Assembly (NCBI GenBank): GCA_965214095.1
Contig: OZ243938.1
Span: forward strand, 3,360,001-3,424,000
Length of the DNA stretch: 64,000 nt
DNA from: Candidatus Poribacteria bacterium
GTDB lineage: Bacteria > Poribacteria > WGA-4E > WGA-3G
Direction of reading: 5' to 3'
Under the pieces are notes generated by a model, which was given only the letters and a program-made list of their open reading frames with translations, did not search any database and was not told the origin of the DNA. This document shows, piece after piece, positions 40,101-54,635 of this stretch. The translations under genes and the position numbers were made by a program. Position 1 is the stretch's first letter. Each line of letters begins with the position of its first letter.

Positions 40101-43100
40101 ACCGACACGAGAGGGCAATTGAAATATGGAATGGGTTGATTGATGCAGACCCGGAAAATACGAAATTTCAAGATGGATTGGTTGACAGTCTTCAAGATGC
40201 AGGTAAAGAGGAAGAAGCACTTCAGATTACACTGAAATACATTGAAGCCGAACCGGATATCGGTGTTCATCACATCCGACTCGCAAAACTCTATACAAAT
40301 AACAATAGGATAGATGATGCTATCGCTACCTATGAAAAAGCAATTGAACTTGCACCCGGAGATAGACAGATTTACCTACAGATGGCACAACTCTATTTTC
40401 TCAAAGATGATATGGATAATGTTGAGAAGGCATATAGAAACGCAATTCAAACCACACCTTCAGAATATGACCGTCAAAATACCGAACGGCAAATCATAGC
40501 TTTATATCGTCTCCAAGGGAATTTAGAAGAAAAGATGCAAAAGGCTGAAGAAGAAGGCACAATAACTTTTGAAATGCAAAAATTATGGGCGGAAACCCTG
40601 TCTAATAAAGGTGAACTACAGAAATCTATTGACGCTTATAAGAAAGCAAAGAATATGACAGTAAACACCTATGAGCAAAGTGATATCTCTGAGAGAATGA
40701 TCAATCTTCAAGTAAAACTCGGAGATACCGATAAAGTGTTGGAAACCTATGAAAATGAATCGAGTACAGATACATCAGTTAGATCCATCATGCATCGTCC
40801 TGTAGGAGTTTCAGTTGAGTCCGATGCTGATTCCTCACGCGTGACTTTAATAAATGCCTTTAAAGACAAAAACATACTTGACGAACTGAAAACACGCTAT
40901 GAGAGCAAACTTGAGAAGAAACCTGACGATGTTTTAGCACTTTCTGTACTTGCAAATATCTATTGGGATGAAGAAGATTATAAGAAGGCAGGTGAAACCT
41001 ATCAAAAGCTAAGTAAATCACAATCAGATAATATCTTCAACTTTTACTATGCAGCGGTTGCCTTTAAAAAAGACAAACAGGCTGAGTTGTTTAAAGAGAT
41101 AATTAAGAAAGCGGAAAGTGCGATTGAAACAAGCAGCAACAGTCATGATATGTATTATCTTGCTGGACTCGGTACGTTTTGTTATGAAAATAAGTTATAC
41201 GAACCAGCGATTAAACTGACGAAATTAGCAATTGAAGAGAGTCGCAGATACGGTGGCAATTACATGAAAGATAGACTATATCAACTGCTCGCAAAGAACT
41301 ATCAGGCAACGAAACAATATGAAAAGGCTGTGGAAGCATATCGATCAGTTCCAAGTGATAGCAACATAAATGTACAATCCGAAATTCGTAATATCGCAAA
41401 AGAAGGTAAACTCTTTGAAAAATGGATCCCTGAACAACTCAAAAAGGTTGAAAAGGATCCTGAGAATACCAATCTACGTTTGACACTTGCACAAAATTAT
41501 GAATATGTTGAAAAATTTAAAGAAGCTATCGCACAGTATGAAATACTGACATCGCTAAAACCTGACAATTCGGAATGGCACAAAAAATTGGGTGATTTAT
41601 ACGCGAATCTGGCAATAGAAAGAAGGGAAACTGGAGAAGTTGTTGAAGACACTACACTCACGCTGACAGGTGAAAGGAGTTACGTTTCAATAGCTGATAG
41701 CGAAACCCTAAACAACATCACTGAACAACTCACGGTATCTGCCTGGATCAGACCGACCGGATACCCAAATGAATACACGAAGATTATTTTAAAGACTGAT
41801 GAGCGAGGACAAAACCCGCATGTTCGAAGTTTCCACTTACAATTAGTTGAGGGTGGAAAAATTAGAACTACATCTGCTCCTCAAGATAAGAGTTTTGTGT
41901 CCATCAGTTCACCGGCTAATACCATTAAACTTAACAATTGGCATCACATCGCTGCCGTCATTGATGTTAAAAAAGATTCTTTTAAACTATTCATTGATGG
42001 TAATGAAGTTGGCAGAAGCAACTATCGTGGCGCGAAAAGTATACATAAGAGTCAACTACCATTCAGGATTGGATGGCTGCATTGGAATGATCCAAAATTG
42101 AATAAATCTTACGTCGGGCAAATTGATGAGGTGCGTATCTGGAACATACCTCGCACGGAAGAACAAATTCGTACTGATATGAATAAACAACTCAATGGCG
42201 ATGAACCCGGATTGATCGGCTATTGGAAATTTGACGAAGTCAAAGAAGGCATTATTACGGATTCTTCACCTAACAACAATGATGCAAAGTTAGTTGCTGA
42301 TGCTAAACTTGAACCTTATAAACGGCCAGTATTTGAGACAACTGAGAATGAAAATAAAGCAAAGTCAACCGCTGCTTACAACAAAGCTCTTGAACTCAAT
42401 CCTGATTCATATAACTATTATGACCTGTTAGCAAAGTCCTACTTGAAATCTGATAAGAACGCTGATGCTGAAAAGGTATATCGACAGGCATTGGATGCAC
42501 CACTCACACAAAGTAATCACGATTCAGCTGTCCGCGCAATTGCCGGTCTTTACACCGCGGACAATCAAGCTGAAAAACTCGTCGCTATCCTTGAAGAGAT
42601 CAGACCGAGAATGCAAAGTCGTGCCGTAATGCATCGATTTTTAGCCGAGACCTACGAAAAGTTAAAGGATACGGAAAAGTCTCAACTCGCTTATGACCGA
42701 TGGCTGAAGATTCGTGAGAAGGAAATGAACCGTTCAACGAGCAATTATAGCCTCCATAATTTCGCAAAGGAACTCCTTGATAAAGACCTCTATCCGGAAG
42801 TTGCATTAAAATTCGCAAAACGCGCCCTACAAAGTTATACCAACGTTAGTTATACCTATCCTTCAACAGTTGGACGCGCATGCATCGCAAATGAATTATA
42901 TGATGATGCTATAAAGTTTTACAGTTATGCATTTAGTGCTACATCTACCATATCGGCAACGGACAGTATTTGGAGAACCGTTCTTAATGAAGGAGAGAAG
43001 CATAAAGACAACAAACAATACAGGCAGTTGTTAGATAATCTGATAGACTCAATTCCAAAGAAAGAATTTAGCAAATGGGCAAATGGACACCGAATGGTTG

Positions 43101-44287
43101 CCCAATTTTATAGTAATAACGGTATGAAGGAATTAGCAGAAAGTTATGTAATGAAGGGCGGTTTTATACCTGAAGACAAGTGGATTATTCTTGCTCCATT
43201 TGTGAACATAGATTCAAACGGACATATAATAGATTACATTCCTGAGGAGACAATGCAGATTGATCCAACAGCAAAATATTACGGTAGAGATCGACTCATC
43301 AGTTGGGAAGAATCGAAATATAGGTCGTTAGACGGTCATTACAATTTTGCTGAACCGATTGATGAATCTGCTGCTTATTTTTGGGCAATCGCTGTCTCTC
43401 CAGAAGAACGCAATGTTACAATCCGATTTGACAGTGACGATCACGGCACAGTCTGGTTAAACGGCAAACAAGTACATAAGAAAGACGGAAGCAGAGGTCA
43501 GAGAATTGACAGACATTCTTTTCCAGTCACATTAAAACAAGGGGAGAACAAATTCCTCCTCAAGGTTTGCAACTCAACACAGGCATGGGGTTTCTATTTT
43601 CGCATAACAGACGATGTTGGAATGCCGTTTGACGACCTGACATATAAATCTGCAGATGAGTTGCTCAGTGCTACTCCGCCAGAACCAAAATTCCACCTGT
43701 ATACCGTTCTTGGTATGATCGAATACTACAGCAAGAACGACATGCAAGAAAAGGCTATGGAAGAAATGCTCAAGACCGGTCTGATTCATGAAAATCAATG
43801 GTTAGTTCTGGGACCCTTTGACAATACTGAAGGAATTGGATATAACACCGCATATATTCCAGAAGATGCTACAGAGATCAATTTAAATACCGAATATGAT
43901 GGTATTGATGGAAAAGTAATATGGAAAAAATCTACAGATGAGACTTTCAACGGCTATATTGATTTTGATCGGAATGAAAATTGGCGTGTCTCTTACGCAT
44001 GGGTAACTCTCACTTCTCCTGATGAAAGAGACGTGCAATTCCGCATCGGCAGTGACGACCAGAGTAAAATTTGGCTCAACGGCAAAGAGGTGTACGCATT
44101 TCCAAATTATCGTTGGGCAAAAGTTGATAACGATACAATACCGGTTACACTCAAGGCTGGGAAGAACACTATACTTGTCAAAATCTGCAATGAAGAACGG
44201 AGTTGGGGCTTCTACTTCCGCATTACTGATGCTGATGGAAAACCTATGCCAGATCTCAAAATCAATGAAATTCAAAATAATCAGTAA
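34103..44287 (+). CDS. Giant exported TPR-repeat protein with LamG-like and two C-terminal beta-sandwich (PA14/sugar-binding-like) domains
   Basis: 3394 aa, N-terminal signal, many TPRs, TVSAWIRP...WHHIA...GQIDEVRIWN, two W..L.PF.N...SDD...WLNGK repeats. Confidence 0.88.
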   Translation: MIGREKSLFVVFLFCLFVLTLYLTRITFAQDVTNDEQIIERYKLMLVRKPKEGSTFDRVYQFYLENAGLEALVSDYQAESQATPDDANVQLILGHIYKRLGKDTEALTIYQRAVELAPNKYYPHVALGQMYATLRQHEEAIQELNKAASLSEQAQNVPPEELTAIYKALGNAYFSRDKVDEAIQAWKKISELDPDDIFARIELADLFREQELFEQAIAQHEAIIQLKKDEPYRVCLSRREIGNIHEAKGDFEKAIQHYDEALTLTAPGNWLRKDLQHRIIGIFAADSNWEGLIEYYQAKLETTPNEPELIGQLAAAYIENQQLEEGMKTYRQGLALAPTDAALRLNLIASLRNAEKYEDAAAEYEVLSEQDPDDFGIYRELGELYLQIGNQAKAKSVYQKMIDRDPNNPSTHLILAEIYAGHEWIEDGIEQYEKAITLAPKNLDFIEYFGDFYFRQGDREKALETWNRMVAGELNTAENNNQLAELLNAKKFKAEAVAATRKAVELMPDEYRYREALAKQLMENNEYEDALQEFTKAMELAPNAFFAEKMDDKRIELFRRQGTLLEKIEELETELEKTGLAEADVFTYHRQLAKMYLRLGNVTYALEVLLKAKEQEPHDIGVNRWLAEVYHRQGRRDDSNAVYMHLIELDSANAREYHANIAKSYLNVLDFEAAATAAKQVIAHSPRNPEGHQLLAQVAKQSGEYETAIDSLKQAVRLRPEAIDIRRELAAIYKLSGKLQQSLSQYWRCWELSHNINEKLTFVKPLSEVYYDLGRRGEFEERLKQMAKSNTVGVGPVLALTELYRLEGDLPSARFQLAQALNKQREDPELLTHLVQISMELGDLQDALSYQQRLVKVDPDYAHQRQLGELLFDAGREQEAIQAWTKLLHAKNQTLEAEVKLAALLLRHGRSEEAFIVLDRASEKISGTDAHLPLYRLGTMLVSMNEPERAQTYFHRILEMSEPIGNTSNKKSAQPSIFYSSSVPGIERNKFRILRSSVGTIQSRPNFAGASMPWTPKDFEEAQSGALVQLTTIAQSQGKLPELIKHFEDNAEVNPTDVKSIEILVKLYTLVQFDDKAKEAIDRLVEISPNDSAYQPLKLHRIMEENPDYETLKKSLKEMPGMDNVSQLAYIAEYAQMLYHKDKKEDAAKLLSEIENVNVTDINTGFELIDAFHLIDKVDIAERLLTNLPVPPQKQQYQYMRKFESLTDDYIKKDELEKATALFWTYCERTKPTKINPRRVAALAQTSYYYGGYRPIQTSYPAPTAYFNSDRLGYLQSIFRDFWMRDQQQLLFTKFQTEFETTEGRNKIFPALALSYCYWWDENGDEAQQVLTVLQQEFPDDLTLKLNTALASIQTGEHKVATELLENLVATEPRNRKQYQDLLLQLFIRTGDTVAIRELMSKMLSSPIGGTELYQFSQILQDAGFTQYAIAAAKKAMTLAMVQRNPNFLIQLGQHLGNLGRGQDASLLAERALRFANRPDRYGRMMYSWNFQQATKLVNQSKSIKEREDKFITDVEKNPESFQAQLRLAMYYEGTNKISKAAETFKAALKLQPKDDMVRLRYVQMMERNGKANDVIPEYLTLLKNDSSALGYNYKTAVDAFVAAEKFDALISLVKDMIDPVGKYAGSDLTASVGRRCLKEEKVDDAIEIFKKIIKVHPSWYYIHQDLANAYIAAGDVEKAVQYLTDMHELEKTSLTQSQFVLKIAEYYEEAGEREKAIQYIREQLSSDDSSDSDTSYVLKLAELYKEDEKLDSFIAEYDAKLAEFPEDTKLLYLTANLKLSAEDTEGASNHVDQLIDTSLGTVQTNWLYSLAQASDDAGSHKLQFHILEAIAEKLERENSWKLEECYKKLGEAYAKRDELEKAQNAFRKMGTLQIMKDNQTSIYEKRNLGSTYMQHKMWDDAEAIFTEIINDLKASSYDREYSQERVMRIKQQRGEFNTAEQITENLQDMSVGMRRAMAKELMQRNQIDKAIEVYEKIEKEMPEDFESRTQLASLYTRNNRHERAIEIWNGLIDADPENTKFQDGLVDSLQDAGKEEEALQITLKYIEAEPDIGVHHIRLAKLYTNNNRIDDAIATYEKAIELAPGDRQIYLQMAQLYFLKDDMDNVEKAYRNAIQTTPSEYDRQNTERQIIALYRLQGNLEEKMQKAEEEGTITFEMQKLWAETLSNKGELQKSIDAYKKAKNMTVNTYEQSDISERMINLQVKLGDTDKVLETYENESSTDTSVRSIMHRPVGVSVESDADSSRVTLINAFKDKNILDELKTRYESKLEKKPDDVLALSVLANIYWDEEDYKKAGETYQKLSKSQSDNIFNFYYAAVAFKKDKQAELFKEIIKKAESAIETSSNSHDMYYLAGLGTFCYENKLYEPAIKLTKLAIEESRRYGGNYMKDRLYQLLAKNYQATKQYEKAVEAYRSVPSDSNINVQSEIRNIAKEGKLFEKWIPEQLKKVEKDPENTNLRLTLAQNYEYVEKFKEAIAQYEILTSLKPDNSEWHKKLGDLYANLAIERRETGEVVEDTTLTLTGERSYVSIADSETLNNITEQLTVSAWIRPTGYPNEYTKIILKTDERGQNPHVRSFHLQLVEGGKIRTTSAPQDKSFVSISSPANTIKLNNWHHIAAVIDVKKDSFKLFIDGNEVGRSNYRGAKSIHKSQLPFRIGWLHWNDPKLNKSYVGQIDEVRIWNIPRTEEQIRTDMNKQLNGDEPGLIGYWKFDEVKEGIITDSSPNNNDAKLVADAKLEPYKRPVFETTENENKAKSTAAYNKALELNPDSYNYYDLLAKSYLKSDKNADAEKVYRQALDAPLTQSNHDSAVRAIAGLYTADNQAEKLVAILEEIRPRMQSRAVMHRFLAETYEKLKDTEKSQLAYDRWLKIREKEMNRSTSNYSLHNFAKELLDKDLYPEVALKFAKRALQSYTNVSYTYPSTVGRACIANELYDDAIKFYSYAFSATSTISATDSIWRTVLNEGEKHKDNKQYRQLLDNLIDSIPKKEFSKWANGHRMVAQFYSNNGMKELAESYVMKGGFIPEDKWIILAPFVNIDSNGHIIDYIPEETMQIDPTAKYYGRDRLISWEESKYRSLDGHYNFAEPIDESAAYFWAIAVSPEERNVTIRFDSDDHGTVWLNGKQVHKKDGSRGQRIDRHSFPVTLKQGENKFLLKVCNSTQAWGFYFRITDDVGMPFDDLTYKSADELLSATPPEPKFHLYTVLGMIEYYSKNDMQEKAMEEMLKTGLIHENQWLVLGPFDNTEGIGYNTAYIPEDATEINLNTEYDGIDGKVIWKKSTDETFNGYIDFDRNENWRVSYAWVTLTSPDERDVQFRIGSDDQSKIWLNGKEVYAFPNYRWAKVDNDTIPVTLKAGKNTILVKICNEERSWGFYFRITDADGKPMPDLKINEIQNNQ

Positions 44288-44594
44288 GCGGTGTTCTTTT
44301 TGAAGAGAATCAACGCTGAATACGCTTGTGGTATTTAGGCAAATCAACGTCAAATGCACCAAATCAAAGACATTCAGTTCGAAAAGTCCTTCCCTTTCGA
44401 AGGGAATCGAAGCCTGATTGACCTACGTGAGTTGCCACCAACATTAGAAATGCACTAACAACAGCAGCAGCGGCAGCGAAAGCACCAACACATGCAGGAT
44501 TGGTTAAGAACTCAACTATTTTCTCAATCAAAATAACATTATCCCAAGAAGTTTCTTTATCCACCTGTGGTTGTAGACACGTTAATCTATTTTA

Positions 44595-45536
44595 CTATCG
44601 CAAACTAATTCCCCACAGTCCTTTCCTATCAGCTTTCGCACGAGACTCATAATCTGTAAACAACTCTTCATACTTGAATGAGTAACGAAGATCAGCCTTC
44701 GCATACCCCTCACGGATCATCTCAAGATTCACAAAAACACCATCAGAAGAGCGATAAACATACCCGAGTATCCTGTCATATTGATCAAAAATGTGTTCGT
44801 CAAAACGAAGATATATTGTATCATCCAACAGGAATTCTTGTAGGTATCTGAACGCATCATGTCCGTATGGTTCGGGGGGTGTGCGTGGATGTACTATTTC
44901 GGGTGAGTTGACACCAAAAAGTTGAACACTTTTGAGTTTGCCCTTATATTTAATTTCAAAAGTATCGCCATCAATAATTCTTACGACTTTATAGTGAGTC
45001 TCTTTTGGGAGAAGTTGGAAAATATTAAACCCTATTGCAATTACAAGTAGCACTGCTAAAGTATATTTTATGAAATTTGATCTGCGTGTTGATTTATGAT
45101 ATTCCTTTGTTGTTTGTTGAAAGATAACTTGATTCTTTCGGTCTAATGTTGGAAGGTCAGAAACTTGTTGTTCAAATTTAGCTTTCTTTCTTACGCGAAA
45201 TACATTAGAACGTAAATTCTCACAATATATCCATTCATTAGGATTGGCATTGAATGCAAGAATACCAAAACGTGTGTCTGTCGCACTCAGGTAACCTTTG
45301 AGTTGATCGCGTGCTTTTTCCGAATCTCCGTTTTTCTCACCCTTACACTCAACAATAGCAGCCCAGTATCCATCTTTATCCTTTAACACAACATCTGCAA
45401 TGCCATTCATCTTGAATTTACCCGCGCCGATATGGATGTGGCACTCGGTATCTACAGTAAAGTCGTTGAACTTGCTTCCGTCAAAGTATGTTATAACGGC
45501 TTTACAAACTTCTTCTTCAGATAGTAATTTATCCAT
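44595..45536 (-). CDS. HsdR-N-like PD-(D/E)XK nuclease-TM-thermonuclease fusion, copy A
   Basis: ADVVL..IVECK..QLKGY..FGIL, then a hydrophobic helix, then IIDGDT..GVNSPE..DQYDRILGYVY..VNLEMIREGYA..KGLWG. Confidence 0.8.
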   Translation of the reverse strand: MDKLLSEEEVCKAVITYFDGSKFNDFTVDTECHIHIGAGKFKMNGIADVVLKDKDGYWAAIVECKGEKNGDSEKARDQLKGYLSATDTRFGILAFNANPNEWIYCENLRSNVFRVRKKAKFEQQVSDLPTLDRKNQVIFQQTTKEYHKSTRRSNFIKYTLAVLLVIAIGFNIFQLLPKETHYKVVRIIDGDTFEIKYKGKLKSVQLFGVNSPEIVHPRTPPEPYGHDAFRYLQEFLLDDTIYLRFDEHIFDQYDRILGYVYRSSDGVFVNLEMIREGYAKADLRYSFKYEELFTDYESRAKADRKGLWGISLR

Positions 45537-45578
45537 ATTTATCCTAAAATGATTTCAAGGTTGTTGTCAAAGTGACAG

Positions 45579-45965
45579 TTATTCTTTTATGATGATTACA
45601 TCGCTATCGTGATTGTATATAATAGTATCATTCATAACTTCAGCAAGTTTGCGTTTTGCATCCGAAAACTCCCAATTGGCAGCTTTCACACGGGCTTCAC
45701 ATATTTTTACATGTCGAAGTGCTTGCTGGATAGATGAACCCGGCAACCAAGACTGCACTTTAGCAACATCAGAAACGTTATCACTGACGACATTTTTCTC
45801 ACTACCTTTCAAGATACTCACTCGGTGCTTACAATACAACTTACTCTGGCCAGCCTGACATGTGCAAAATGCCGTGAGTTCTTTTCCATTTCTTACGAAT
45901 GTGACTTCGTAAGGTTTTGGTGTTGAACCTTGAACGAGGAACCGTATGCTTGCTGTTGCTTTCAT
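45579..45965 (-). CDS. SWIM zinc-finger protein, copy A
   Basis: VQGS..PYEV...CTC-x8-CKH. Confidence 0.8.
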   Translation of the reverse strand: MKATASIRFLVQGSTPKPYEVTFVRNGKELTAFCTCQAGQSKLYCKHRVSILKGSEKNVVSDNVSDVAKVQSWLPGSSIQQALRHVKICEARVKAANWEFSDAKRKLAEVMNDTIIYNHDSDVIIIKE

Positions 45966-46431
45966 AAATATCCCAACTTTCGTGTGAACTATAGTCCTTT
46001 TTCAATTTGTCTCTCCGCGTGAGCATAAAACCAGTGATCCTATTTCTGAATAAAAGGAATATTCGCTAATATCTGAAAGTCTACGTGTGGACGTACAGGA
46101 CTATCATACCCAAGCGTCAGATAGGTATAAAACTTGTCATTAACAGGCTTATCGCTAACAGCATCGGTTTTGAGATGAAACGTTTTTCTGCCGAAACCGT
46201 GTGCTTCCATCTGGTTAGCATAAAGAGACTGAACTATTTTGATCTATGTGGATATTTTGGTGGGAATGTCATGTTGAATTGTCCTGTCACGGCAGCAGGA
46301 ATCGTAAAAAGCAGCAACAAGCACAAAACACTATTATTTGGCAATCCCTCTCCTAAAGATAGTATGCCAAAGAAATGAATTTATGTCAAGCAGTTTGTCA
46401 TTATCAAAACAGGCGTTCATAGTCGCGCAAT

Positions 46432-46612
46432 TCATTGAGCATCTTGCGTAAGACTGCCACATAAGGATTTGCCTTCTATAGCTACCGCATTCTTATCGTC
46501 TTCCTGTGTAGCTGCGAACACATCCGCTGCCCACGCACTGAGTGTTTTTTCTAAAGCAATAATGTCTAAATCGTTGAAACAATAATGGAGCGTTGAGGCA
46601 CAAGGTGTCTTC
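46432..46612 (-). pseudogene. ISAs1-family transposase fragment
   Basis: TPCASTLHYCFNDLD..LE...W...VAIEGKSLCGS, a decayed IDGKTLRGS motif, bounded by REP elements. Confidence 0.6.
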
Positions 46613-47280
46613 AGACGTAGGTCGGGTAGAGGGCACGAAACCCGACAAGTATGATTGTGGCTATCCTGTCGGTTAGAGTCACGACACCCGACTTTATTGA
46701 CGATAAATGGCTGCATGTCGGGTTTCGTGCCTCTACCCGACCTACAAGATTAGTATAGACAGAACACTATGTTTCCTAACCTCGCCTCAGCAATGTGTAG
46801 AATTAATTCAATAATTTACCAAAATTACCGATATTTACTCAATTTACGTTTAATTGCTAATTGGTAAAAGCTGAATAAATTCAAATCAGTGCCGAATACC
46901 AAATCAACGGTATGAATGTGGTTTGTAGGGGGTTCCAACCCCGATTTTTTCCCAAAACCTTTCGCACTGTTGGTACTTGGTTCCGTATGATATTCTATAC
47001 ACCTTCTTGCACCGCTAATGCTGAAAAGTCTTCTACTACAGCCTCGTAGAGGCGAAAGGTGTATAGTACACGTTGAACCCACTAACAGCAAGCCCAGAGG
47101 GGCGACAGGTGTATTCCATGCACAAACGTAACTCACTAAATTGACGCATAAGGTTCGGTTTCCTAACCGAACCGGATCTTCCGAGAAAACCTTTATGAAC
47201 GCCATTGGCACAAATCCGGTCCTGATGTGGATGGCAAGACAGCTTCAGAGAGTGAACCGAATGACAAGGCTTCTTAGGAA

Positions 47281-47854
47281 GTGAAACCGAGAAATAATCT
47301 AAAAGACCTTTTACAAAATGATACTCCAGAGAAAGAATCTGAACCCGTTGAAGATGCACCTGTTAAGGAGAATAAAAGTCAACGGGCTCCGTCAAGACAG
47401 GGTAAAAAGCTTGTCAGTGGATATTTTGATCCGGATGCACACATGCAATTGAAATTGCTATCTGGAAACGGGGAAACCGATGCAGGGGTTGTTGACAGAT
47501 ACACCATAGGTGTCAATTTAAGGATATTTACCTGTGAAGGATTTTGGAAGTTTATTTTTATCATACACACCTTTCGCACCGCTGGTGCTTGGTTTCTTGT
47601 GGTGGACATTTTCTATACACCTTTCGCACCGCTGGTGCTGATATGTGATTTATAAAAGCCTCGGAGAGGCAGCATGCGCGTGTGGCATGCTGCATGAGGT
47701 GTATAGCGCGTAATATCAACACAGCCCAAGCCCCAGCGGGCCGACAGGTGTAACAAATGCACAAACTTTACTCACTAAATTGACGCCTATGGGTTTGTTG
47801 ACAGATGCACTGAATGTTCTTTTTAAGATGCATGACAAACCGCCAATCGTATAA
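47281..47854 (+). pseudogene. Ribbon-helix-helix protein, frameshifted and MITE-interrupted
   Basis: RAPSRQGKKLVSGYFDP..QLKLL / ETGKPMQGLLTDALNVLF..KPPIV*, resuming after the MITE. Confidence 0.6.
47505..47791. mobile_element. MITE with CATAGGTGTCAATTTA TIRs and 19-bp target duplication
   Basis: Flanks GGGTTGTTGACAGATACAC (47486-47504) and GGTTTGTTGACAGATGCAC (47792-47810). Confidence 0.8.
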
Positions 47855-48095
47855 AGGTGAATATTGTGTCAATATGTGGTGTTCATCAAAAAGAACAATA
47901 TGCGGGATCGGCTGAAATGTGGTTGGATCGGACAATACAACTTACAAATGGCAAAGAGACCTTTTATAGCCACATCGCTAAATATTACTTGAATTTCATC
48001 CTTGACCATGAACGATAGATGCACAGAAATGTTCTTTGATGTTTTCCTGTGGCAATGTTCAAGGTTAACTGTGAGAATGTAATGGGATTGGAAGA

Positions 48096-49268
48096 TCACG
48101 TCTCAATACTGAACTCTTCTGTTTCCTCTGCACTCTTTTCGGTCTCAGTTAGTGTCGGATTATCGTAACTTTGCACAGCTACTTTCAACTGCTCTGCGTA
48201 ATTATAAATATCGTCTACACCCTCAAGTTCGACCCGACTATATTTTTTTGTCCCACCTGAACCTAAGTTGTCACTATCAAGTAATCCCAAGTATTTATTC
48301 TTACTATTAAAATATAGGCGACATATAGGTTTTTTCCTGCTATCATCCAGTATAATACCCATGTAACTTATGGTGTCACGGTGAAATATGCGTTCTGGAT
48401 CAACTACTTCACGGACAATTGACTTGATGATATAATATCCCTCTAACTCTTCTTCGGTTGTTACAATATTGGATTCTTCGTCATCTATTGATTCATCAAT
48501 GTCATCAACTTCAGTTGGTTCTTCCGCTGTGTTCTCTTCTTTGATTGCAGATTGTAGGCGATAATTAAGTTGTTCATTCATGAATTGGTGTAAGGCACGC
48601 CTTACAATTTCTGTGAATTGTTCCACGACACTTTGTGTTCTAATACCACTATAGACAGATGATAGAAAGAATTTTACAAATTCTGGGTGAGGTGTATCCA
48701 ATTGTTCCATGAGGGTCTGCTTAATTTCTTTTGTATACTTCAAGTCGCTGGCAGCAGAAATGGATTCATCCAAATTAAATGCAGATTTAGTAAACCTTTT
48801 TAGTTCATTGACCAAGGTTGGTTGAATATCAAGCATGTCAATTTCAAGGAAAGGCTTGGTGTCCATTATGTTTGTTTCTTCAAGATCTGTGTAAAAGCGG
48901 TATAAAACACCGTCAGTCAAAACAGCGAAACGAGCGTGAACGACTGAAAAGTAACGGTACAACTGTGATGTGTGAACATCAGACAAATCTTCACCATACT
49001 TCTTACATTCAATAAGCATGATAGCATTTTCATCTTTGAATATGGCGTAGTCAACCTTTTCTCCTTGTTTTGTCCCAATATCTGCAGTAAATTCAGGTAC
49101 AACTTCTCTTGGATTAAATACATCGTATCCCAGTAGGTTAATGAAAGGCATGACAAACGCAGTTTTAGTTGCCTCTTCAGTCTGAATAACCTCTTTTTGT
49201 TCTTCTATTCTGGCGGATAATACCCTAAGATTTTCAATAAAATCCATAAAATACCCTTTCTCATACAT
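48096..49268 (-). CDS. Type I restriction HsdR N-terminal-domain endonuclease-like protein
   Basis: TEEATKTAFVMPF..LGYDVFNP.EVVPEF..GEKVDYAI..LIECK..QLYRYF..LTDG. Confidence 0.85.
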   Translation of the reverse strand: MYEKGYFMDFIENLRVLSARIEEQKEVIQTEEATKTAFVMPFINLLGYDVFNPREVVPEFTADIGTKQGEKVDYAIFKDENAIMLIECKKYGEDLSDVHTSQLYRYFSVVHARFAVLTDGVLYRFYTDLEETNIMDTKPFLEIDMLDIQPTLVNELKRFTKSAFNLDESISAASDLKYTKEIKQTLMEQLDTPHPEFVKFFLSSVYSGIRTQSVVEQFTEIVRRALHQFMNEQLNYRLQSAIKEENTAEEPTEVDDIDESIDDEESNIVTTEEELEGYYIIKSIVREVVDPERIFHRDTISYMGIILDDSRKKPICRLYFNSKNKYLGLLDSDNLGSGGTKKYSRVELEGVDDIYNYAEQLKVAVQSYDNPTLTETEKSAEETEEFSIET

Positions 49269-49766
49269 GATGTGTTATACAACCGGTAATTGTTGTCAAT
49301 TGCCGGTCTTTCAAATAACATTAGATTGTTTCTCATTAGGTGTTCCAGTCTCCAGTCTGTTAATATTGGATGGGTGGCAGATATACCGTGCAGTATGCTT
49401 AGCAGTGTCACCCGACTGGTTCATAAAGTATAGCAAAATACGAGAAATATTACAAATACCTTTATGAAATTACAGAGGCATTCAATTGTCAATATTCTCT
49501 ATCGTGGGAGGGGTTTCCAACCCCGATTTAACAACAAAATCAGTCGTCCTCACGCAATTCACGCACCTATTTTATCTCTTGAAAATGTTTTATTTCACTT
49601 TAGGATAAGAAAACTCGACAATTGAATACCTCTGATGAAATTACGAGAATATGGCGGAAATTTCTACATTAGGTGAGAATTATTCTAAAAGCCAATCATA
49701 TAATAGGTTATTTTATCAAAGATGATTAGGTATTTGGCGTTCATGTTTTACTTTTTCTGATATTGT

Positions 49767-51119
49767 TTAGACGAGTTCATTTCCATTTACCGCTTCCAGT
49801 TCAGCGGCAATTATGAGTTGCGTTTCTCTATATTCCTTTGCATCAGGAATACGAATAAACTCAGCATTAACATCATGCGTTTTAACGATGTCTTCAATTT
49901 CCTCAAGACTAACGTTGAAGAATTCTTTACGTGTGTTGATTCTATTGACACTCCGCTTTTCAAGAACACGGTGTATTTCATTCTCAAGTTCAGGTGCGTT
50001 CTCTGAATAGATCATCGCATGAATATCAAAGCGAAACGGAACAGAAGCATCCCCAAGTTCTCTGACCCGATCATTCGGCTCCAATCTGCGAGTCATCCCT
50101 ACCTTATAGACATTTTCGCCAAAAGACCCGATATTAGATATAACATAAACATGTCCCGATTTGGTCATCTGTGCCCTTGACAGTGCGCGTTCCTTGTTCG
50201 CTTGTGCCTCTAACACTAAGTCGTTCAGACGTTCAATTTCAGATTGTAATTTGTTCTGTCTTGCTCCCGTTGCTTCTTCCACTTCTTGACGTGCTTTATC
50301 CAACGCCTTCTGATAACGTTGTTCCTCTTTCTCTGCCTCTTGTTGTGCTTTTTGCACTTCGCGTAGTGCGCGCTCTTCATCGCGTATCTGATCACGAATC
50401 CTGCGTTGTTCTTCCATTTCAATTTGGCGTTTATCCGCATATTCGTGGACAAGTTTGAGTTCATCAAGTTTCAAATTGAGATAGTCTGTCTGAATTGAAC
50501 AGTGGTGCGGTTCTCCGAGCTTGTTAATAGCTTTATATGCTGACATAATTCGTTTTTCTATACTATGAATGTTGTTATAGCGAACCTTCTGAATTATAGA
50601 ATCACATTCACCATTAAAAGCGCGCGCCATCAATTTAATTTGTCTATCAGTTTTTTGTCGCCCTTTAGCCTTGTTACCGTCAACAGTCCACTCAGTAGGA
50701 CAGATAATTGCAGACTTTTCCTTGATCATTAATTTCTGTTCTTTTCGTATTTCATCAAGTTTATCTTTATACTCAGCAGACGTGCCAAAGTCGTATTTAG
50801 GTTCATAAAGTCCGAATGATTGGATTTCCACTGTGTCTTGGACAACAGTAATCTCATCCTTTAGCGTTGACAAGTTTTCTTGAGCATCGGAGATTTCAGA
50901 TTGAATACGACTTTGTTGCGAAGTTAGCGAGTCTAATGCTTCTTTTGCATCCTTTTGTTCTTGTTTAATAGATATCCGGATCCTTTCCTGTTCCGCTTCA
51001 ACATCAAGAATGCTTTTGAATCTCGTTAAGTGTCGTTTCTGCTTGATTACCAGAGTTATGAGATAACCTACAAGAACTAAAAGTAATATCCCTATAATTG
51101 CAATAATTTCAGTTGACAT
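49767..51119 (-). CDS. DUF4041 + T5orf172 (GIY-YIG-like) membrane-anchored protein
   Basis: N-terminal TM, RAFNGECD, GHVYVISNIGSFGENVYKVGMTRRLEP..VPF.FD.HA..RKEFF. Confidence 0.9.
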   Translation of the reverse strand: MSTEIIAIIGILLLVLVGYLITLVIKQKRHLTRFKSILDVEAEQERIRISIKQEQKDAKEALDSLTSQQSRIQSEISDAQENLSTLKDEITVVQDTVEIQSFGLYEPKYDFGTSAEYKDKLDEIRKEQKLMIKEKSAIICPTEWTVDGNKAKGRQKTDRQIKLMARAFNGECDSIIQKVRYNNIHSIEKRIMSAYKAINKLGEPHHCSIQTDYLNLKLDELKLVHEYADKRQIEMEEQRRIRDQIRDEERALREVQKAQQEAEKEEQRYQKALDKARQEVEEATGARQNKLQSEIERLNDLVLEAQANKERALSRAQMTKSGHVYVISNIGSFGENVYKVGMTRRLEPNDRVRELGDASVPFRFDIHAMIYSENAPELENEIHRVLEKRSVNRINTRKEFFNVSLEEIEDIVKTHDVNAEFIRIPDAKEYRETQLIIAAELEAVNGNELV

Positions 51120-51213
51120 AAAATATATCTTGTTCCTCTCTTAATAAATCTCAATAAAAATATGCTTATGAACTTCTCACACATGAGAATATTGTTTATT
51201 TGATGTCCGCTTT

Positions 51214-51558
51214 TTAACGTTGTTGGAATTGTGCTATCCGACTATGTATTCGCCGTTGTGCAGCAGGTATATCGGCTTGTTCAATACCAAAAGCACGTCT
51301 AAGAGCAAATGCCGGAACAGGACTTATAGTCATGTGGCATCGTCCGCAAAGAGTTACCAAGTTTGATAAACGATTAGATCCACCTTGACGGCGGGGCTTG
51401 ATATGGTGTACTTGTGCTTTTTTCGTTTGTCTACCACATCCTTTGCACTGTCCCTTATCGCGTTTAATAACGCGTTCACGGATTGCATGCCAAGGTTCAT
51501 TAGTACGGTATTTTGAACCTCTTTTTTTGTTTGACTGATAATACCTTCTTTTCCGCAA
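51214..51558 (-). CDS. HNH endonuclease
   Basis: RD..CKGCG..VHHIKP..GGSN..NLVTLCGRCH. Confidence 0.88.
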   Translation of the reverse strand: MRKRRYYQSNKKRGSKYRTNEPWHAIRERVIKRDKGQCKGCGRQTKKAQVHHIKPRRQGGSNRLSNLVTLCGRCHMTISPVPAFALRRAFGIEQADIPAAQRRIHSRIAQFQQR

Positions 51559-51616
51559 TTTTATACCTCTTCAATAACGACATTTATTGGACTAAATTAT
51601 TTGTTGTCTGTTATTA

Positions 51617-52555
51617 TCAGTATCCACCCCATAATTCTTTACGATCTGCTTTCGCACGAGACTCATAATCTGTAAACAACTCTTCATACTTGAAAGGATA
51701 ACGCTTGTCAACCTTCGCATACCCCTCACGAATCATCTCAAGATTTACAAAAACACCATCGGAAGAACGATAAACATATCCAAGTATTCTCTCGTGCTTA
51801 TCAAATTTGCTCTGGTCATAATCAAAATATACTGTTTCGTCCAACAAGAATTCCTGTAAATATTTGGTTGCTTCTGCGCTGTATGGTTCTGGTGGTCGAT
51901 TATTAGTCGTATTCGGTTCAGGGGCATTGACACCAATAAGTTGAACACTTGTGGGTTTACCTTTATATTGTATTTCAAATGTGTCGCCATCAATGATTCT
52001 TACGACTTCATAGCGAGTATCAGTATGCATCGGTAGTAAGATTAGAAAATAGACTGATAGACAAGCTGCAATTACAAACAAGGCAGATATAAAGGCAATT
52101 CTTACACGTTTCAGTCTTCGTGTTAATCGCTTGAGAACAACCTGATCAATTCGGTCCCCTATTGGCGGATCAAAAACCTGTTTTTCAAAATCAGATCTAT
52201 CAAGTATTTCTCTAAATTTGTGAGCTCGTTGATTTTCACAATATATCCATTCGTCCGGGTTATCGTTGAATGCAAGAATTCCGAAACGTGTATCCGTTCC
52301 ACTGAGGTAACTCCTGAGTTGACCACGAGCTTCTTCTGTATCTCCTACTTCTTCACTTTTACACTCAATAATTGTTACCCAATGTCCCTTTTCATCACTT
52401 AACACAACATCAGCTCTGCCAAAGTTTCGACCTTTACCCACCCCAAACTGAATATCGCATTCTGTTTTTACAGTAAAGTCTTTGAATCTGCTTTGTCTGA
52501 AATGTCTTATAACGGCATTCCGTACGTCTAGCTCAGACAGTCTGTTGTTATTCAT
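51617..52555 (-). CDS. HsdR-N-like PD-(D/E)XK nuclease-TM-thermonuclease fusion, copy B
   Basis: RADVVL..IIECK..QLRSY..FGIL, TM, then IIDGDT..GVNAPE..ERILGYVY. Confidence 0.8.
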   Translation of the reverse strand: MNNNRLSELDVRNAVIRHFRQSRFKDFTVKTECDIQFGVGKGRNFGRADVVLSDEKGHWVTIIECKSEEVGDTEEARGQLRSYLSGTDTRFGILAFNDNPDEWIYCENQRAHKFREILDRSDFEKQVFDPPIGDRIDQVVLKRLTRRLKRVRIAFISALFVIAACLSVYFLILLPMHTDTRYEVVRIIDGDTFEIQYKGKPTSVQLIGVNAPEPNTTNNRPPEPYSAEATKYLQEFLLDETVYFDYDQSKFDKHERILGYVYRSSDGVFVNLEMIREGYAKVDKRYPFKYEELFTDYESRAKADRKELWGGY

Positions 52556-52596
52556 ATTTATCCTAACATGATTTCAAGGTTCTTGCTAAAGTAGAG

Positions 52597-52983
52597 TTAT
52601 TCTTTGATGATGATTACATCGCTATCGTGATTGTATATAATAGTATCATTCATGGCTTCAGCAAGTTTGCGTTTTGCATCCGAAAACTCCCAATTGGCAG
52701 CTTTCACACGGGCTTCACATATTTTTACATGTCGAAGTGCTTGCTGCATAGAAGAACCCGGCAACCAAGATTGCACTTTGGCGACATCAGAAACATTATC
52801 GCTCACGATGTTCTTTTGACTGCCTTCTAAGATATTCACTCGGTGCTTACAATGCGATCTATTCTGTTCATCCTGACATGTGCAAAATGCCGTCAGTTCT
52901 TTCCCCTTTCTTACGAATGTAACTTCGTAAGGTTCTGGTGCTGAACCTTGAACGAGGAACCGTATGCTTGCAGTTGTATCCAT
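52597..52983 (-). CDS. SWIM zinc-finger protein, copy B
   Basis: CTC-x8-CKH, near-identical to 45579-45965. Confidence 0.8.
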   Translation of the reverse strand: MDTTASIRFLVQGSAPEPYEVTFVRKGKELTAFCTCQDEQNRSHCKHRVNILEGSQKNIVSDNVSDVAKVQSWLPGSSMQQALRHVKICEARVKAANWEFSDAKRKLAEAMNDTIIYNHDSDVIIIKE

Positions 52984-53573
52984 AAATATCCCAACTTTCG
53001 TGTGAACTGTTGTTCCTTTTCAATTCTCAAACCACAACCGTGACCGTACGGAAACAGATTGATAGATACATGTCTATCAAGCCGCGCTTTTGTCTCCTGT
53101 CACATGATGCACAATCACATCACCAGCAGCATCGGTTTCAAGGCGAAACGCCTATCTGCTGAACCCGTGTGCTTCCATCTGGTTAGCATAAAGAGAATGA
53201 ACTATTTTGATCTATGTGGATATTTTGGTGGGAATGTCTTACTGAATTGCGCTGTCGCGGCAGCAGGAATCGTAAAAAGCAGCAACAAGCACAAAACACT
53301 ATTATTTGGCAATCCCTCTCCTATAAGATAGTATGCCAAAGAAATGAATTTATGTCAAGCAGTTTGTAATTTTTTGATCGGAAAAATCCAGTCATGAATA
53401 TAAGAGGCGCAATGAATTGCGCGACTACGAACCCACTATTTCTTTATTGGTATATTCTTTATTAGAAATGGTATAAATTGTGATTACTGTAATAGTGTAT
53501 TTATGCTATGATGTAAATCTGATTTGGCAACAGAATATCAAGTTTAGTATTGGCAAACTGAACAAGGGTATGT

Positions 53574-53979
53574 ATGAGACGTTACCTTTATCCTCTTTTA
53601 TCACTATTCGCATGCGTTATTATATTGGGGTGTCAATCAAAAGCGATTCAGATGCTGATTGAACCGCAGGAATCAGTGAATCTTGCGCTTGAGAAGGGTG
53701 TTACGTGTTCTGCCTCTGAAATGATAGATGGCAACTTGAAAACACTTGGCTACGCGGATGGGAGATGGATTCACTTGAGGTTACCTAAAAAGAAAACTAT
53801 ACACCGGATTGTCATCCGTGGTACGAATATAACAGATGCGATAATTTTTCAAAGATTGGATCATACCGAACTATCACATGCGGTTGCACAAGTGCAGAGT
53901 AACCGTAGTTCAGTGATAGGGATACGGACAACTGTTGTGACAGACACATTAAACATATATGTTGCTGGCACATCGGAGG
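53574..53979 (+). CDS. Lipoprotein, 5' part (interrupted by IS607)
   Basis: ILGC lipobox. Continues in frame at 55755-55876 after removing the element. Confidence 0.7.
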
Positions 53980-54047
53980 TTGAGTAACAGTATCTAAAAC
54001 TCTACATTTTTCTTGACATTCCTTGATATTTATGTGATACTATATAC

Positions 54048-54635
54048 ATGCCTTATGTATCAGCGCGCAAAGCAAGTGAGCTGCTGGATTATACACCTGA
54101 CCATTTACGTAGGTTGGCAAATGAAGGAAAGATTGATATTATCCGCACAGGAGGCGGACACAGACGCTATGATGTTGATGGATACATCAAAAGCAAATCC
54201 CAATCAATTGCAACTGTTTGCTACTGCAGAGTATCCAGCACAAAGCAAAGAGACGACCTTGAACGACAAGTTGAATATATGCGAAGCATCTACCCCGAAG
54301 CAGAAGTTATCCGAGACATCGGAAGCGGGATCAACTTCAAAAGAAAAGGGCTTAGAACCTTATTGGAACGGCTTATGCAAGGTGATAAGCTCCAAGTTGT
54401 TATTGCCCATCGGGATAGGCTCGCCCGCTTCGGTATCGACCTTATACGATACCTCATTGAACAAAACGGTGGCGAACTCGTGGTTTTGGACCAAACAGCA
54501 CACAGTCCGCAAGAAGAACTCACGGCGGATCTTCTCGCAATCCTGCATGTCTTCAGTAGCCGGATGCACGGGCTCAGAAGTTACCGTGACAAAATCAAAG
54601 AAGATAAGAGTTTATCCAACAACAGAACAACGTGA
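54048..54635 (+). CDS. tnpA: IS607 serine-recombinase transposase
   Basis: Same motifs as copy 1. Confidence 0.95.
   Translation: MPYVSARKASELLDYTPDHLRRLANEGKIDIIRTGGGHRRYDVDGYIKSKSQSIATVCYCRVSSTKQRDDLERQVEYMRSIYPEAEVIRDIGSGINFKRKGLRTLLERLMQGDKLQVVIAHRDRLARFGIDLIRYLIEQNGGELVVLDQTAHSPQEELTADLLAILHVFSSRMHGLRSYRDKIKEDKSLSNNRTT

Follow-up and report, generated by a model that had tools for sequence, protein, structure and literature searches.

Organization of the locus

The analysed stretch of Candidatus Poribacteria DNA, here called the window, is 64,000 nucleotides long and carries on its minus strand two modules, A and B, listed with their neighbours in Table 1. Each consists of a gene for a 128-aa SWIM-finger protein followed by a 312- or 313-aa nuclease gene, with a spacing of 42 nt in module A. 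The nuclease has the same architecture in both copies: a PD-(D/E)xK domain (HSDR_N_2, Cas4-like), one transmembrane (TM) helix and an SNase domain. ORF calls and Pfam matches agree with an earlier sequence-only reading of this DNA, which had described the SWIM gene and the PD-TM-SNase nuclease as occurring twice.

Table 1. Features of the two modules and of the genes between them
Feature	Position in window	Strand	Basis
Module A	45965-44595	-	ORF list
Nuclease A, whole gene, 313 aa	44595-45536	-	ORF
Nuclease A, residues 181-309: SNase (D191, Q205, N210, E213, R255), predicted periplasmic	44610..44996	-	Pfam, HMMER, Foldseek
Nuclease A, residues about 155-176: single TM helix, after basic stretch HKSTRRSN	45009..45074	-	hydrophobicity, family comparison
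Nuclease A, residues 1-130: PD-(D/E)xK (HSDR_N_2, Cas4/RecB-like), predicted cytoplasmic	45147..45536	-	Pfam, alignment, AF2
SWIM-A, 128 aa, cytoplasmic	45579..45965	-	Pfam PF04434, 27.2 bits
Leader of module A, conserved, non-coding, about 395 nt, promoter-like site to SWIM start	45966..46360	-	conservation
Promoter-like site of module A: TTGACA, 17 nt, CATACT, TG before second hexamer	46361..46389	-	consensus match only
390-aa protein with N-terminal HSDR_N / HSDR_N_2 nuclease domain; neighbour	48096..49268	-	Pfam; phrog_4225 'endonuclease', 8.1e-127
PD-Lambda-1/SNIPE homologue, 450 aa: N-terminal TM, DUF4041, T5orf172/GIY-YIG; neighbour, outside module	49767..51119	-	PADLOC 2.6e-169, Pfam
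Small HNH endonuclease gene (114 aa), immediately downstream of nuclease B	51214..51558	-	Pfam HNH, 6.6e-13
Module B	52983-51617	-	ORF list
Nuclease B, 312 aa: PD 1-131 (52163-52555), TM about 152-173 (52037-52102), SNase 181-310 (51626-52015)	51617..52555	-	Pfam, alignment
SWIM-B, 128 aa, 87% identical to SWIM-A	52597..52983	-	CxCx8CxH intact
Leader of module B, conserved, about 345 nt, deletions relative to A	52984..53329	-	conservation
Promoter-like site of module B, sequence as in A	53330..53358	-	consensus match only

The same reading had called the pair a duplicated module, and this holds only in part. Self-comparison of the window revealed two repeat blocks of about 1.8 kb, about 7.0 kb apart, whose pieces are 91-98% identical; however, nucleases A and B share only 59% identity (dS about 1.0) and fall into different clades, so that the term overstates the case, while the SWIM proteins are 87% identical (dS 0.29). 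The window copies are old and mosaic, and no recent duplication is involved. In the related locus L005, copy 1 has an SNase domain 93% identical to that of nuclease B and a PD domain only 55% identical; the PD and SNase domains thus appear to have different histories, which may be read as the signature of an arms race. In both window copies the PD domain (omega 0.24) and the SNase domain (0.17, the lowest value in the protein) are under purifying selection, and the linker and TM region is near neutral (0.88).

The PD domain and its membrane tether

The two nucleases score 26.7 and 31.6 bits against HSDR_N_2 (cut-off 25 bits), and the motifs D..ExK and QxxxY, previously described as intact, are invariant across 32 aligned sequences (D48, E63-C-K65, Q78xxxY82). 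The AF2 model of nuclease A has two confident globular domains, with block-mean pLDDT of 66-96 in the PD domain, and a long single helix at residues 131-167, predicted with low confidence. The closest solved structures to the PD profile are those of Cas4, 4ic1 (E 1.6e-4) and 4r5q (E 0.04).

An exhaustive search with the PD profile yielded 259 representatives, and the plasmid and phage collections searched contained no match to this domain. A membrane tether is a theme of the subfamily: at least one TM helix is found in 54 of 148 relatives (P0104-P0251, among the 150 matches listed), many of which are tail-anchored and several of which have four TMs. PD domain and TM are joined by a linker of variable length (54-151 residues) in which coiled-coil inserts occur. 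Beyond the TM, the place of the SNase can be taken by an FGE-sulfatase (P0081-84, P0149, P0205), a ComEA-type HHH_3 domain (P0122, P0162, P0164, P0217) or TPR. Some outer domains of the subfamily are DNA binders.

In each window nuclease the single hydrophobic helix is preceded by a K/R-rich stretch. A TM precedes the SNase in 79 of 80 family members, and in 75 of these 79 the 15 residues before the helix hold more K+R than the 15 after it, with fewer in none. By the positive-inside rule the PD domain is predicted to be cytoplasmic and the SNase periplasmic, as the sequence-only reading had proposed in placing the two folds on opposite faces of the membrane. An outward-facing SNase with a type II anchor has been proven for S. 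aureus Nuc2, as reported in PMC3994088.

The SNase domain and its substitutions

The SNase domains are recognized by Pfam with E-values of 8.1e-20 and 2.5e-19, and the model of that of nuclease A superposes on staphylococcal nuclease entries in Foldseek with target TM-scores of 0.82-0.86 and rmsd of 1.6-2.1. HMMER alignment to staphylococcal nuclease chains (D21=D191, R35=Q205, D40=N210, E43=E213, R87=R255) agrees exactly with the substitutions noted earlier: D21, E43 and R87 are retained, while Arg35 is replaced by Gln and Asp40 by Asn. Since Arg35 of the S. aureus nuclease helps to polarise the scissile phosphate, as described in PMC8436206, the outer domain may cut poorly.

The idea of the sequence-only reading that the outer domain could be a weakened sensor does not follow from these residues. 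Asn40 also appears in 3 of 8 outgroup sequences, which are ordinary SNases with R35. Gln35 recurs in many other phyla, in exported SNases with signal peptides or anchors, and is widespread among those that stand alone as proteins of about 180 aa. To judge from this distribution, Gln35 is a mark of a widespread exported SNase subfamily and does not imply decay. As D21, E43 and R87 are (nearly) invariant in the family and purifying selection is strongest on this domain, it would be as likely that the outer domain is active, or at least binds metal and DNA, as that it is a dead sensor.

A dead or weak periplasmic SNase could still sense DNA or a phage part and switch on the cytoplasmic PD domain, for example by clustering. 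Gln35 is family-wide (Gln in 77 of 80 sequences, His in 2), the outer domain is exchangeable with the non-nuclease modules named above, and the coiled-coil linkers could mediate oligomerisation. Conversely, the retained residues, the strong constraint, the stand-alone Gln35 proteins, which argue for independent working, and an intact ORF of TM and SNase alone in L005 all speak against such a dependence, and this explanation is considered unlikely, though not negligible.

Distribution and genomic context

About 80 clusters share the PD-TM-SNase architecture. Among species-representative genomes, full-length relatives occur only in Candidatus Poribacteria, at five loci in four genomes. Context was compared at six loci (the window and L001-L005), two of which are near-identical islands. 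Recognised defence genes are present at five of the six. PD-Lambda-1/SNIPE adjoins the nuclease gene in three (window, L005 and L003), lying in the window between the two module copies; at L004 the adjoining gene is a type II methylase-HNH fusion and at L002 a PglX/type IIG-like methylase, and no defence gene was found among the 7 ORFs scanned at L001. The setting is thus defence-like, in keeping with the candidate anti-phage or anti-foreign-DNA system of the earlier reading. The small HNH gene may belong to the module as a third gene, since HNH follows three of eight nuclease copies and a methylase-HNH fusion a fourth. The L005 island is 95-98% identical to that of the window, and its counterpart of the 390-aa HSDR_N neighbour is 98% identical. 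An ISAs1 fragment and a TnpB gene lie nearby. No CRISPR array or cas gene was identified in the scanned parts of the window.

Members of the PD subfamily are also fused to DprA (P0146, P0154), OB and ComEA-type domains; as a counterpoint to defence, such fusions might indicate a role in taking up or processing DNA.

On this view the protein would be a periplasmic DNA-entry nuclease that scavenges DNA or processes transforming DNA, with the PD domain acting on the imported strand and no role in defence. Besides the fusions just mentioned, SNases that are anchored or secreted occur commonly, and most of them serve other purposes than defence (Nuc2; the annotation 'thermonuclease family protein' stands on at least 5000 plasmid records). 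However, no competence genes were seen near the nuclease genes, the neighbours being PD-Lambda-1, HNH, methylase and transposase genes; one island holds both diverged copies, with domain-level mosaicism, and the handful of loci is unlike a core function. A housekeeping role is therefore regarded as distinctly unlikely.

The SWIM gene, its leader and promoter-like site

SWIM-A, whose score exceeds the PF04434 cut-off of 19.6 bits, has the motif C34-x-C36-x8-C45-x-H47 followed by a C-terminal helix, and its N-terminus has no hydrophobic segment. SWIM-B gives no Pfam match at E<=0.01 despite its intact motif, which is unchanged in all nine SWIM relatives. Copy B and L005 carry exactly the same promoter-like site as module A; it has 10 of 12 consensus matches, a score that nine sites of the scan reach. 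The leader is 91.6% identical between the window copies, and its 249-column core is 90-96% identical among window A, window B and L005, against a 24% difference at SWIM synonymous sites. It has no coding signature in any frame and no Rfam match, and its folding energy is not unusual (z 0.39).

SWIM is an accessory part: its linkage to the nuclease is not general, as the gene lies upstream of only three of the eight nuclease copies examined, and nine SWIM clusters compare with about 80 for the nuclease. These figures also bear on the idea of a toxin-antitoxin or abortive-infection pair, in which SWIM, as antitoxin or trigger-sensor, would restrain a toxic PD nuclease until infection. A small upstream gene in the same operon, close to the nuclease and behind a conserved promoter and leader, would suit such a pair, as would the fusion of SWIM-core relatives to other nucleases (RNase_T-SWIM-BRCT in P0253 and P0254); but the gene is missing upstream of five of eight copies, including L002, whose nuclease belongs to the nuclease B clade, and a second promoter-like site lies inside the SWIM-nuclease spacer, which makes this pairing improbable.

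That nuclease and HNH form a homing or addiction unit that spreads without helping its host, as HNH after several copies, the ISAs1 fragment and TnpB gene nearby and the near-identity of the L005 island might suggest, is very improbable, given that copy A and L001-L003 have no HNH after the nuclease, that the repeat search of the window, apart from the 1.8-kb blocks, found no repeats that would bound a mobile unit, and that the plasmid and phage collections yielded no PD match.

Proposed role

The nuclease is tentatively proposed, as a serious possibility, to be a bitopic inner-membrane enzyme that guards the entry point of foreign DNA. The PD domain would face the cytoplasm, tethered by the TM helix, which would keep it off the chromosome and close to injected, conjugated or taken-up DNA, as in SNIPE. 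The periplasmic SNase would bind and probably cut DNA in a Ca2+-dependent manner, or anchor the protein at the entry site; a transmembrane signal would be unnecessary, as co-localisation would suffice. SWIM, where present, may be a cytoplasmic accessory, either a regulator or a DNA/nuclease adaptor, presumably co-transcribed with the nuclease from the conserved promoter and leader, and the downstream HNH may be a further optional part. Copies A and B, as diverged alleles side by side, would broaden specificity. The PD-TM-SNase protein is thus a candidate for a plausible new guard against incoming DNA.

Comparison with known systems

The NucA/Nin pair of Bacillus subtilis consists of a DNA-entry nuclease and a small inhibitor, and shares with the window modules an outward-facing, membrane-anchored nuclease encoded beside a small partner gene. 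However, the fold of the window nuclease is different, its partner is an upstream, cytoplasmic SWIM-finger protein, and a competence context was not found at its loci.

With Cas4 and the RecB family (HSDR_N_2, PF13588) the PD domain shares D...ExK and QxxxY. Unlike Cas4, it has only one invariant Cys, and therefore no four-Cys cluster, and Cas4 models score 17.9 bits against a cut-off of 65. The logic of Shedu, in which one PD-(D/E)xK core is combined with many accessory domains (as described in bioRxiv 10.1101/2023.08.10.552793), recurs in the PD subfamily, with TPR, OB, Macro, Tubulin_2, FGE-sulfatase, HHH_3 and SNase; unlike in Shedu, no DUF4263 or SduA match was found in Pfam or PADLOC, and membrane tethering is frequent.

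In S. aureus Nuc2 and the plasmid thermonuclease family proteins, too, an SNase that faces outward comes after a TM or signal anchor, which is exactly the form of the truncated TM and SNase copy in L005. Unlike the window nucleases, they have no cytoplasmic domain; at least 80% query coverage was reached by none of at least 5000 plasmid and 36 phage records, and the pCT plasmid thermonuclease keeps Arg35 and Asp40.

PADLOC has no model for the whole protein and matched no named system, in accordance with the initial impression that none was recognisable. The nearest parallel is SNIPE/PD-Lambda-1, described in PMC13190303 as an inner-membrane-anchored nuclease that cuts phage DNA during injection and whose TM prevents self-cleavage. 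With the topology predicted for the window nuclease, both have a single-pass inner-membrane anchor, a non-specific-looking nuclease at the cytoplasmic face and variable tether or adapter regions. Conversely, the window nuclease has PD-(D/E)xK in place of DUF4041 and GIY-YIG, and its orientation is reversed: SNIPE is described in the same source as having only a short periplasmic N-terminus, whereas in the window nuclease the N-terminus would lie in the cytoplasm and the periplasmic part would be a folded domain, namely a second nuclease fold. It would thus be SNIPE-like in logic and not in ancestry.

Domain composition and conserved residues

Both nucleases of the window, A (313 aa) and B (312 aa), combine a PD-(D/E)xK domain of the HSDR_N_2 type (PF13588; 26.7 and 31.6 bits, cut-off 25) with a SNase domain (PF00565; 71.7 and 70.1 bits, cut-off 21). 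None of the PD-domain residues D48, E63, C64, K65, Q78 and Y82 varies among the 32 aligned family members. HMMER alignment to staphylococcal nuclease chains pairs D21 with D191, E43 with E213 and R87 with R255, and places Q205 and N210 at the positions of R35 and D40; in both copies, the full catalytic set of the S. aureus enzyme (D21, R35, D40, E43, R87) is thus incomplete, R35 being replaced by Gln and D40 by Asn. AF2 modelling with the family alignment predicted both domains with confidence (block-mean pLDDT mostly 79-96 in the PD and 73-91 in the SNase domain), connected by a low-confidence helical segment, residues 138-179, which contains the transmembrane (TM) helix. The SNase half of the model superposes on solved staphylococcal nuclease structures with a Foldseek target TM-score of 0.82-0.86; the best 50 Foldseek matches are all staphylococcal nuclease entries and are uninformative on the PD domain. 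Pfam, the invariant PD motifs, residue mapping, model and superposition all agree with the domains and motifs described in the sequence-only reading, including the retained DGDT motif, PE glutamate and distal Arg and the two substitutions. The protein belongs to the SNase fold family, but need not be a full catalytic equivalent of the S. aureus nuclease.

That reading had taken Gln35 and Asn40 as a possible mark of a weakened SNase, a view that the wider comparison makes less compelling. Asn40 is ordinary, since it also occurs in outgroup SNases bearing Arg35: all eight readable outgroup sequences have R at position 35, with N in three and D in five at position 40, and the SNase of plasmid pCT has R and D, respectively. 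Of the 80 family members, 61 have N and 18 have D at position 40, whereas 77 have Q and two have H at position 35, one having no readable motif. The pattern DGDT...Q..G..PE was found in 23 fetched loci outside Poribacteria, a sample biased by one scan pattern that began with Q, so Gln35 is not peculiar to the fusion; its carriers are found in Thiotrichaceae, Thiodiazotropha, Sedimenticola, Acidimicrobiia, Akkermansia, Methanobrevibacter, Pseudonocardia and others, and most of the Gln35 SNases outside Poribacteria are proteins of ~180 aa with signal-peptide-like N-termini. Exported tandem double-SNase proteins, with Arg at position 35 in the first domain and Gln in the second, are encoded by Akkermansia and Verrucomicrobiales MAGs (loci L009, L011, L015 and L050 of the genome search). 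Substitutions of R35 lower the rate by several orders of magnitude. Arg35 of the S. aureus enzyme helps to polarise the phosphate (PMC8436206). The Gln-type domain may be slower, or differently arranged; as read from its sequences, it represents an exported type of enzyme that has been conserved, and no relic.

Membrane topology

A strongly hydrophobic 19-residue window precedes the DGDT motif in 79 of the 80 family members. The 15 residues before it contain on average 4.9 K+R and the 15 after it 2.0; the count is higher before the helix in 75 of 79 proteins, equal in four and lower in none. This bias therefore predicts an N-in, C-out orientation, in agreement with the earlier proposal that the two nuclease folds lie on opposite membrane faces. 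Hydropathy and the positive-inside rule likewise predict inner-membrane anchoring of a cytoplasmic nuclease, an arrangement known from SNIPE (PD-Lambda-1), a membrane-bound GIY-YIG anti-phage nuclease. An experimental precedent for an anchored, outward-facing SNase is S. aureus Nuc2 (PMC3994088); a TM helix or signal peptide followed by a SNase domain is also found in at least 5000 plasmid records, annotated as 'thermonuclease family protein'.

Locus organization

The features of the region are collected in the table. Copy A abuts the 3' end of the convergent gene for a TPR protein, and the TnpB gene is situated beyond copy B; the extra N-terminal residues of the listed TnpB ORF probably derive from an upstream TTG start. 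Immediately beyond each of the two repeated blocks lies a GC-rich hairpin, detected as a pair of inverted repeats; it resembles a terminator, or a REP-type element, at the block boundary. The 390-aa HSDR_N protein could represent a single-gene defence of its own or a phage-derived nuclease. Other genes of the window include planctomycete-type cytochromes and sulfatases, in keeping with a poribacterial origin; no tRNA genes are present within the whole window.

Features of the region encoding the two modules, with counterparts in the related island L005 (window positions unless L005 is named)
Feature	Position	Strand	Remark
Promoter-like site and leader, module B	53358-52984	minus	5'-most element of the region
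SWIM-B	52983-52597	minus	CxCx8CxH motif
Nuclease B	52555-51617	minus	Pfam SNase and HSDR_N_2
Small HNH endonuclease gene	51558-51214	minus	between nuclease B and PD-Lambda-1
PD-Lambda-1	51119-49767	minus	450 aa; PADLOC 2.6e-169
390-aa HSDR_N protein	49268-48096	minus	phrog_4225 'endonuclease' at 8.1e-127
Debris, ~1.7 kb	between 390-aa gene and module A leader		ISAs1 transposase fragment and short repeats; elements within 46432-47800 follow
ISAs1 transposase fragment	46432-46716
RHH antitoxin-like match	47281-47655		fragmentary
68-nt direct repeat	47093/47732
38-nt direct repeat	46927/49509
Promoter-like site and leader, module A	46389-45966	minus
SWIM-A	45965-45579	minus	Pfam PF04434
Nuclease A	45536-44595	minus	Pfam SNase and HSDR_N_2
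Hairpin GCGCAAT..ATTGCGC	46415-46445; 53402-53432		GC-rich
TPR protein	34103-44287	plus	single 3394-aa ORF; TPR repeats and Laminin_G_3 domain; convergent with nuclease A
137-aa ORF	53574-53987	plus	precedes TnpB; no family match
TnpB-family RNA-guided endonuclease gene	54013-55704	plus	listed ORF has ~190 extra N-terminal residues
Promoter-like site and leader, L005	about 2240-2669
Small HNH genes, L005	4333-4677; 8527-8919		directly after nuclease copies
Second nuclease copy, L005	8004-8468		intact 154-aa ORF; TM and SNase alone

Duplication history

A duplicated two-gene module had been proposed; two modules are indeed present, and on sequence comparison their duplication is old and mosaic. 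Nucleases A and B share 59% identity (dS ~1.0), compared with 87% (dS 0.29) for the two SWIM proteins, and copy A, copy B and L005 share 90-96% identity over the leader core. A quick maximum-likelihood analysis of 75 nucleases placed copy A in a clade of nine sequences (support 100) and copy B in a different clade of ten (support 97); moreover, copy B and the first copy of L005 are 93% identical in the SNase domain and only 55% in the PD domain. The closer SWIM and leader sequences, the differing clades and the unequal domain identities therefore indicate that the module head (promoter, leader and SWIM gene) was homogenised or exchanged, and that each nuclease domain has a history of its own. 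Purifying selection acts on every part (omega 0.17-0.28) except the linker/TM region (0.88 for the linker).

The leader, 345-395 nt long and preceded by a promoter-like site, is conserved beyond the level of SWIM synonymous sites. It was rejected as a structured RNA (folding z-score 0.39; no Rfam match at the gathering score or at E<=1) and as coding sequence, the opposite-strand ORFs at 46085-46378 and 53059-53331 having no coding signature.

The family and its PD subfamily

Of 797 candidates from a word-indexed protein search, 94 proteins matched at E<=0.001, and the first 80 of these were taken as the family; PF13588 and PF00565 are both annotated in 74 of the 80, and 75 contain both parts according to a motif scan. 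Species-representative genomes gave 56 matching loci, and the PD domain is covered only in five, L001-L005, all from Candidatus Poribacteria MAGs. The PD-TM-SNase fusion was present in no plasmid or phage record searched, and a tblastn search of plasmids and phages with only the PD domain found nothing.

The PD subfamily is broader. When 1.84 billion representatives were searched with a profile built from seven PD domains, 259 matched at E<=0.001, of which 191 reached E<=1e-10; the nearest solved relatives by profile are Cas4 proteins. According to Pfam, in 119 newly fetched profile matches (77 + 42) within relatives P0104-P0251, the PD core is joined to TPR, OB (tRNA_anti_2), HHH_3, Macro, Tubulin_2, DprA, DnaJ_C, DUF4268, FGE-sulfatase or SNase domains. 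A hydropathy scan found at least one TM helix in 54 of 148 newly fetched PD relatives, many of them tail-anchored, some with four TM helices and some arranged as PD-TM-outer domain; four further relatives, P0081-P0084, are 45% identical to nuclease A across the PD domain and TM helix and then continue into an FGE-sulfatase domain. Thus, the constant part would be a membrane-tethered Cas4-like nuclease, with a variable outer domain. Other members of the subfamily are fused to Tubulin_2 (P0111 and P0145, ~1100 aa) or to a four-TM block and coiled coil (P0115, P0131, P0137 and others, 600-1000 aa), neither type giving a PADLOC system match.

Neighbouring defence genes and the SWIM protein

The setting is defence-like, since recognised defence genes adjoin the nuclease in five of six loci. 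PD-Lambda-1 accompanies it in the window and in L003 and L005, whereas its neighbour is a type II methylase-HNH fusion in L004 and a PglX/type IIG-like methylase in L002; no defence gene was found among the ORFs scanned in L001. L003 does not share the flanking genes of the window, and the pairing of nuclease and PD-Lambda-1 therefore occurs in at least two settings. L005 is a near-identical island, with 96% and 90% identity for its two HNH copies, 95% for PD-Lambda-1 and 98% for the 390-aa protein; its second nuclease copy lacks the PD domain and SWIM gene. The small HNH gene, which has a sub-threshold IscB-like HNH match, lies 3' of three of the eight nuclease copies, and the HNH-methylase fusion of L004 occupies the same position after a fourth; no HNH remnant follows copy A.

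The linkage to SWIM did not prove general: a SWIM gene lies upstream of only three of the eight nuclease copies, and only nine SWIM clusters were found. Four of the eight listed source contigs match nuclease-cluster contigs in size, a proxy and no proof of linkage. The zinc-finger motif itself (CxCxnCxH; PF04434) is invariant in nine of nine sequences; only SWIM-A exceeds the HMM cut-off (27.2 bits), SWIM-B keeping the motif with no Pfam match at E<=0.01. The SWIM core (residues 6-79) recurs within RNase_T-SWIM-BRCT proteins, and look-alikes of the protein in the Atlas are common small SWIM proteins; its AF2 model (mean pLDDT 47.6) was too poor for a fold search.

Proposed mechanism and its significance

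The domains present, their conserved motifs, the selection acting and the gene neighbourhood are observed; we infer the locations of the two domains and an attack on entering DNA. The PD nuclease would be cytoplasmic and tethered to the membrane, the SNase domain would be periplasmic, and the two would jointly attack DNA as it crosses the inner membrane, with SWIM and HNH as optional accessories. The tether would spare the chromosome by analogy with SNIPE, for which such sparing has been demonstrated (PMC13190303). We tentatively prefer this tethered double nuclease, with a probability that falls a little short of even.

The alternatives appear less probable. A sensor-effector variant, in which the outer domain would sense nucleic acid and the inner one act as effector, shares the predicted two-sided topology; the notion of a weakened SNase that accompanied it is made less compelling by the conservation of the Gln-type domain, and we consider the variant unlikely. 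A role in DNA uptake or scavenging is judged somewhat less likely again. A toxin-antitoxin pair is improbable: the SWIM and nuclease genes do form a two-gene module in the window, but such a pair needs obligate pairing, which the nuclease copies without an upstream SWIM gene contradict. Selfish cargo is the least probable explanation, and we give it hardly any weight.

A wider proposal, which we regard as doubtful, builds on the tethered double nuclease. It would represent a new trans-envelope class of immune nucleases, in which a periplasmic DNA-binding or DNA-cutting SNase and a cytoplasmic Cas4-like nuclease hit DNA in transit from both sides; the class would be part of a much larger superfamily, as yet undescribed, of membrane-tethered PD-(D/E)xK nucleases whose outer or inner sensor domains can be exchanged, and would act together with SNIPE, beside which it recurs. 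Cleavage of phage DNA at entry, in which location and not sequence separates self from non-self, has only recently been shown, for SNIPE. If the double nuclease works in the way suggested above, this principle arose two or more times, in nuclease folds that are unrelated, and could reach the periplasmic side too, and the membrane-tethered PD relatives would suggest that nucleases located in the envelope form a broad group that is still unexplored. The double nuclease is a compact single-gene candidate, easy to test in laboratory hosts.

Comparison with known systems

As the sequence-only reading had supposed, the protein corresponds to no named system: PADLOC v2.0.0 gave no full-length match of the nuclease to any system's protein model, its partial matches being to C3a212 'SNc+LTD' in the SNase half, to Cas4 (5.6e-4) and, in part of the SWIM protein, to PDC-S62. 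NCBIfam gave only sub-threshold SNase matches, NucI and EcnA, and the literature found for EcnA consists of plant papers only; no description of the architecture was found in the open-access literature searched.

Type I HsdR contains SF2 helicase/translocase domains, whereas the nuclease described here has only 313 aa and no helicase domain, and neither HsdM nor HsdS was found among the neighbours scanned. With respect to Cas4, the TIGR00372 score is 17.9 bits against a cut-off of 65, and the PD domain has a single invariant Cys, C64, in contrast to the four-Cys Fe-S cluster of Cas4; no CRISPR-like repeat array was detected in 43000-55000, no cas genes among the ORFs scanned and no Rfam match in the whole window. 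Shedu is characterized by a DUF4263 / SduA nuclease domain, to neither of which the nuclease has a Pfam or PADLOC match (E<=0.01). Finally, SNIPE consists of DUF4041 and GIY-YIG (T5orf172) domains, both absent from the 313-aa nuclease; it is the neighbouring 450-aa gene that qualifies as PD-Lambda-1. The double nuclease, a candidate defence protein, resembles such membrane-bound nuclease defence in its logic, which it would realize with different folds and an added, predicted periplasmic domain.
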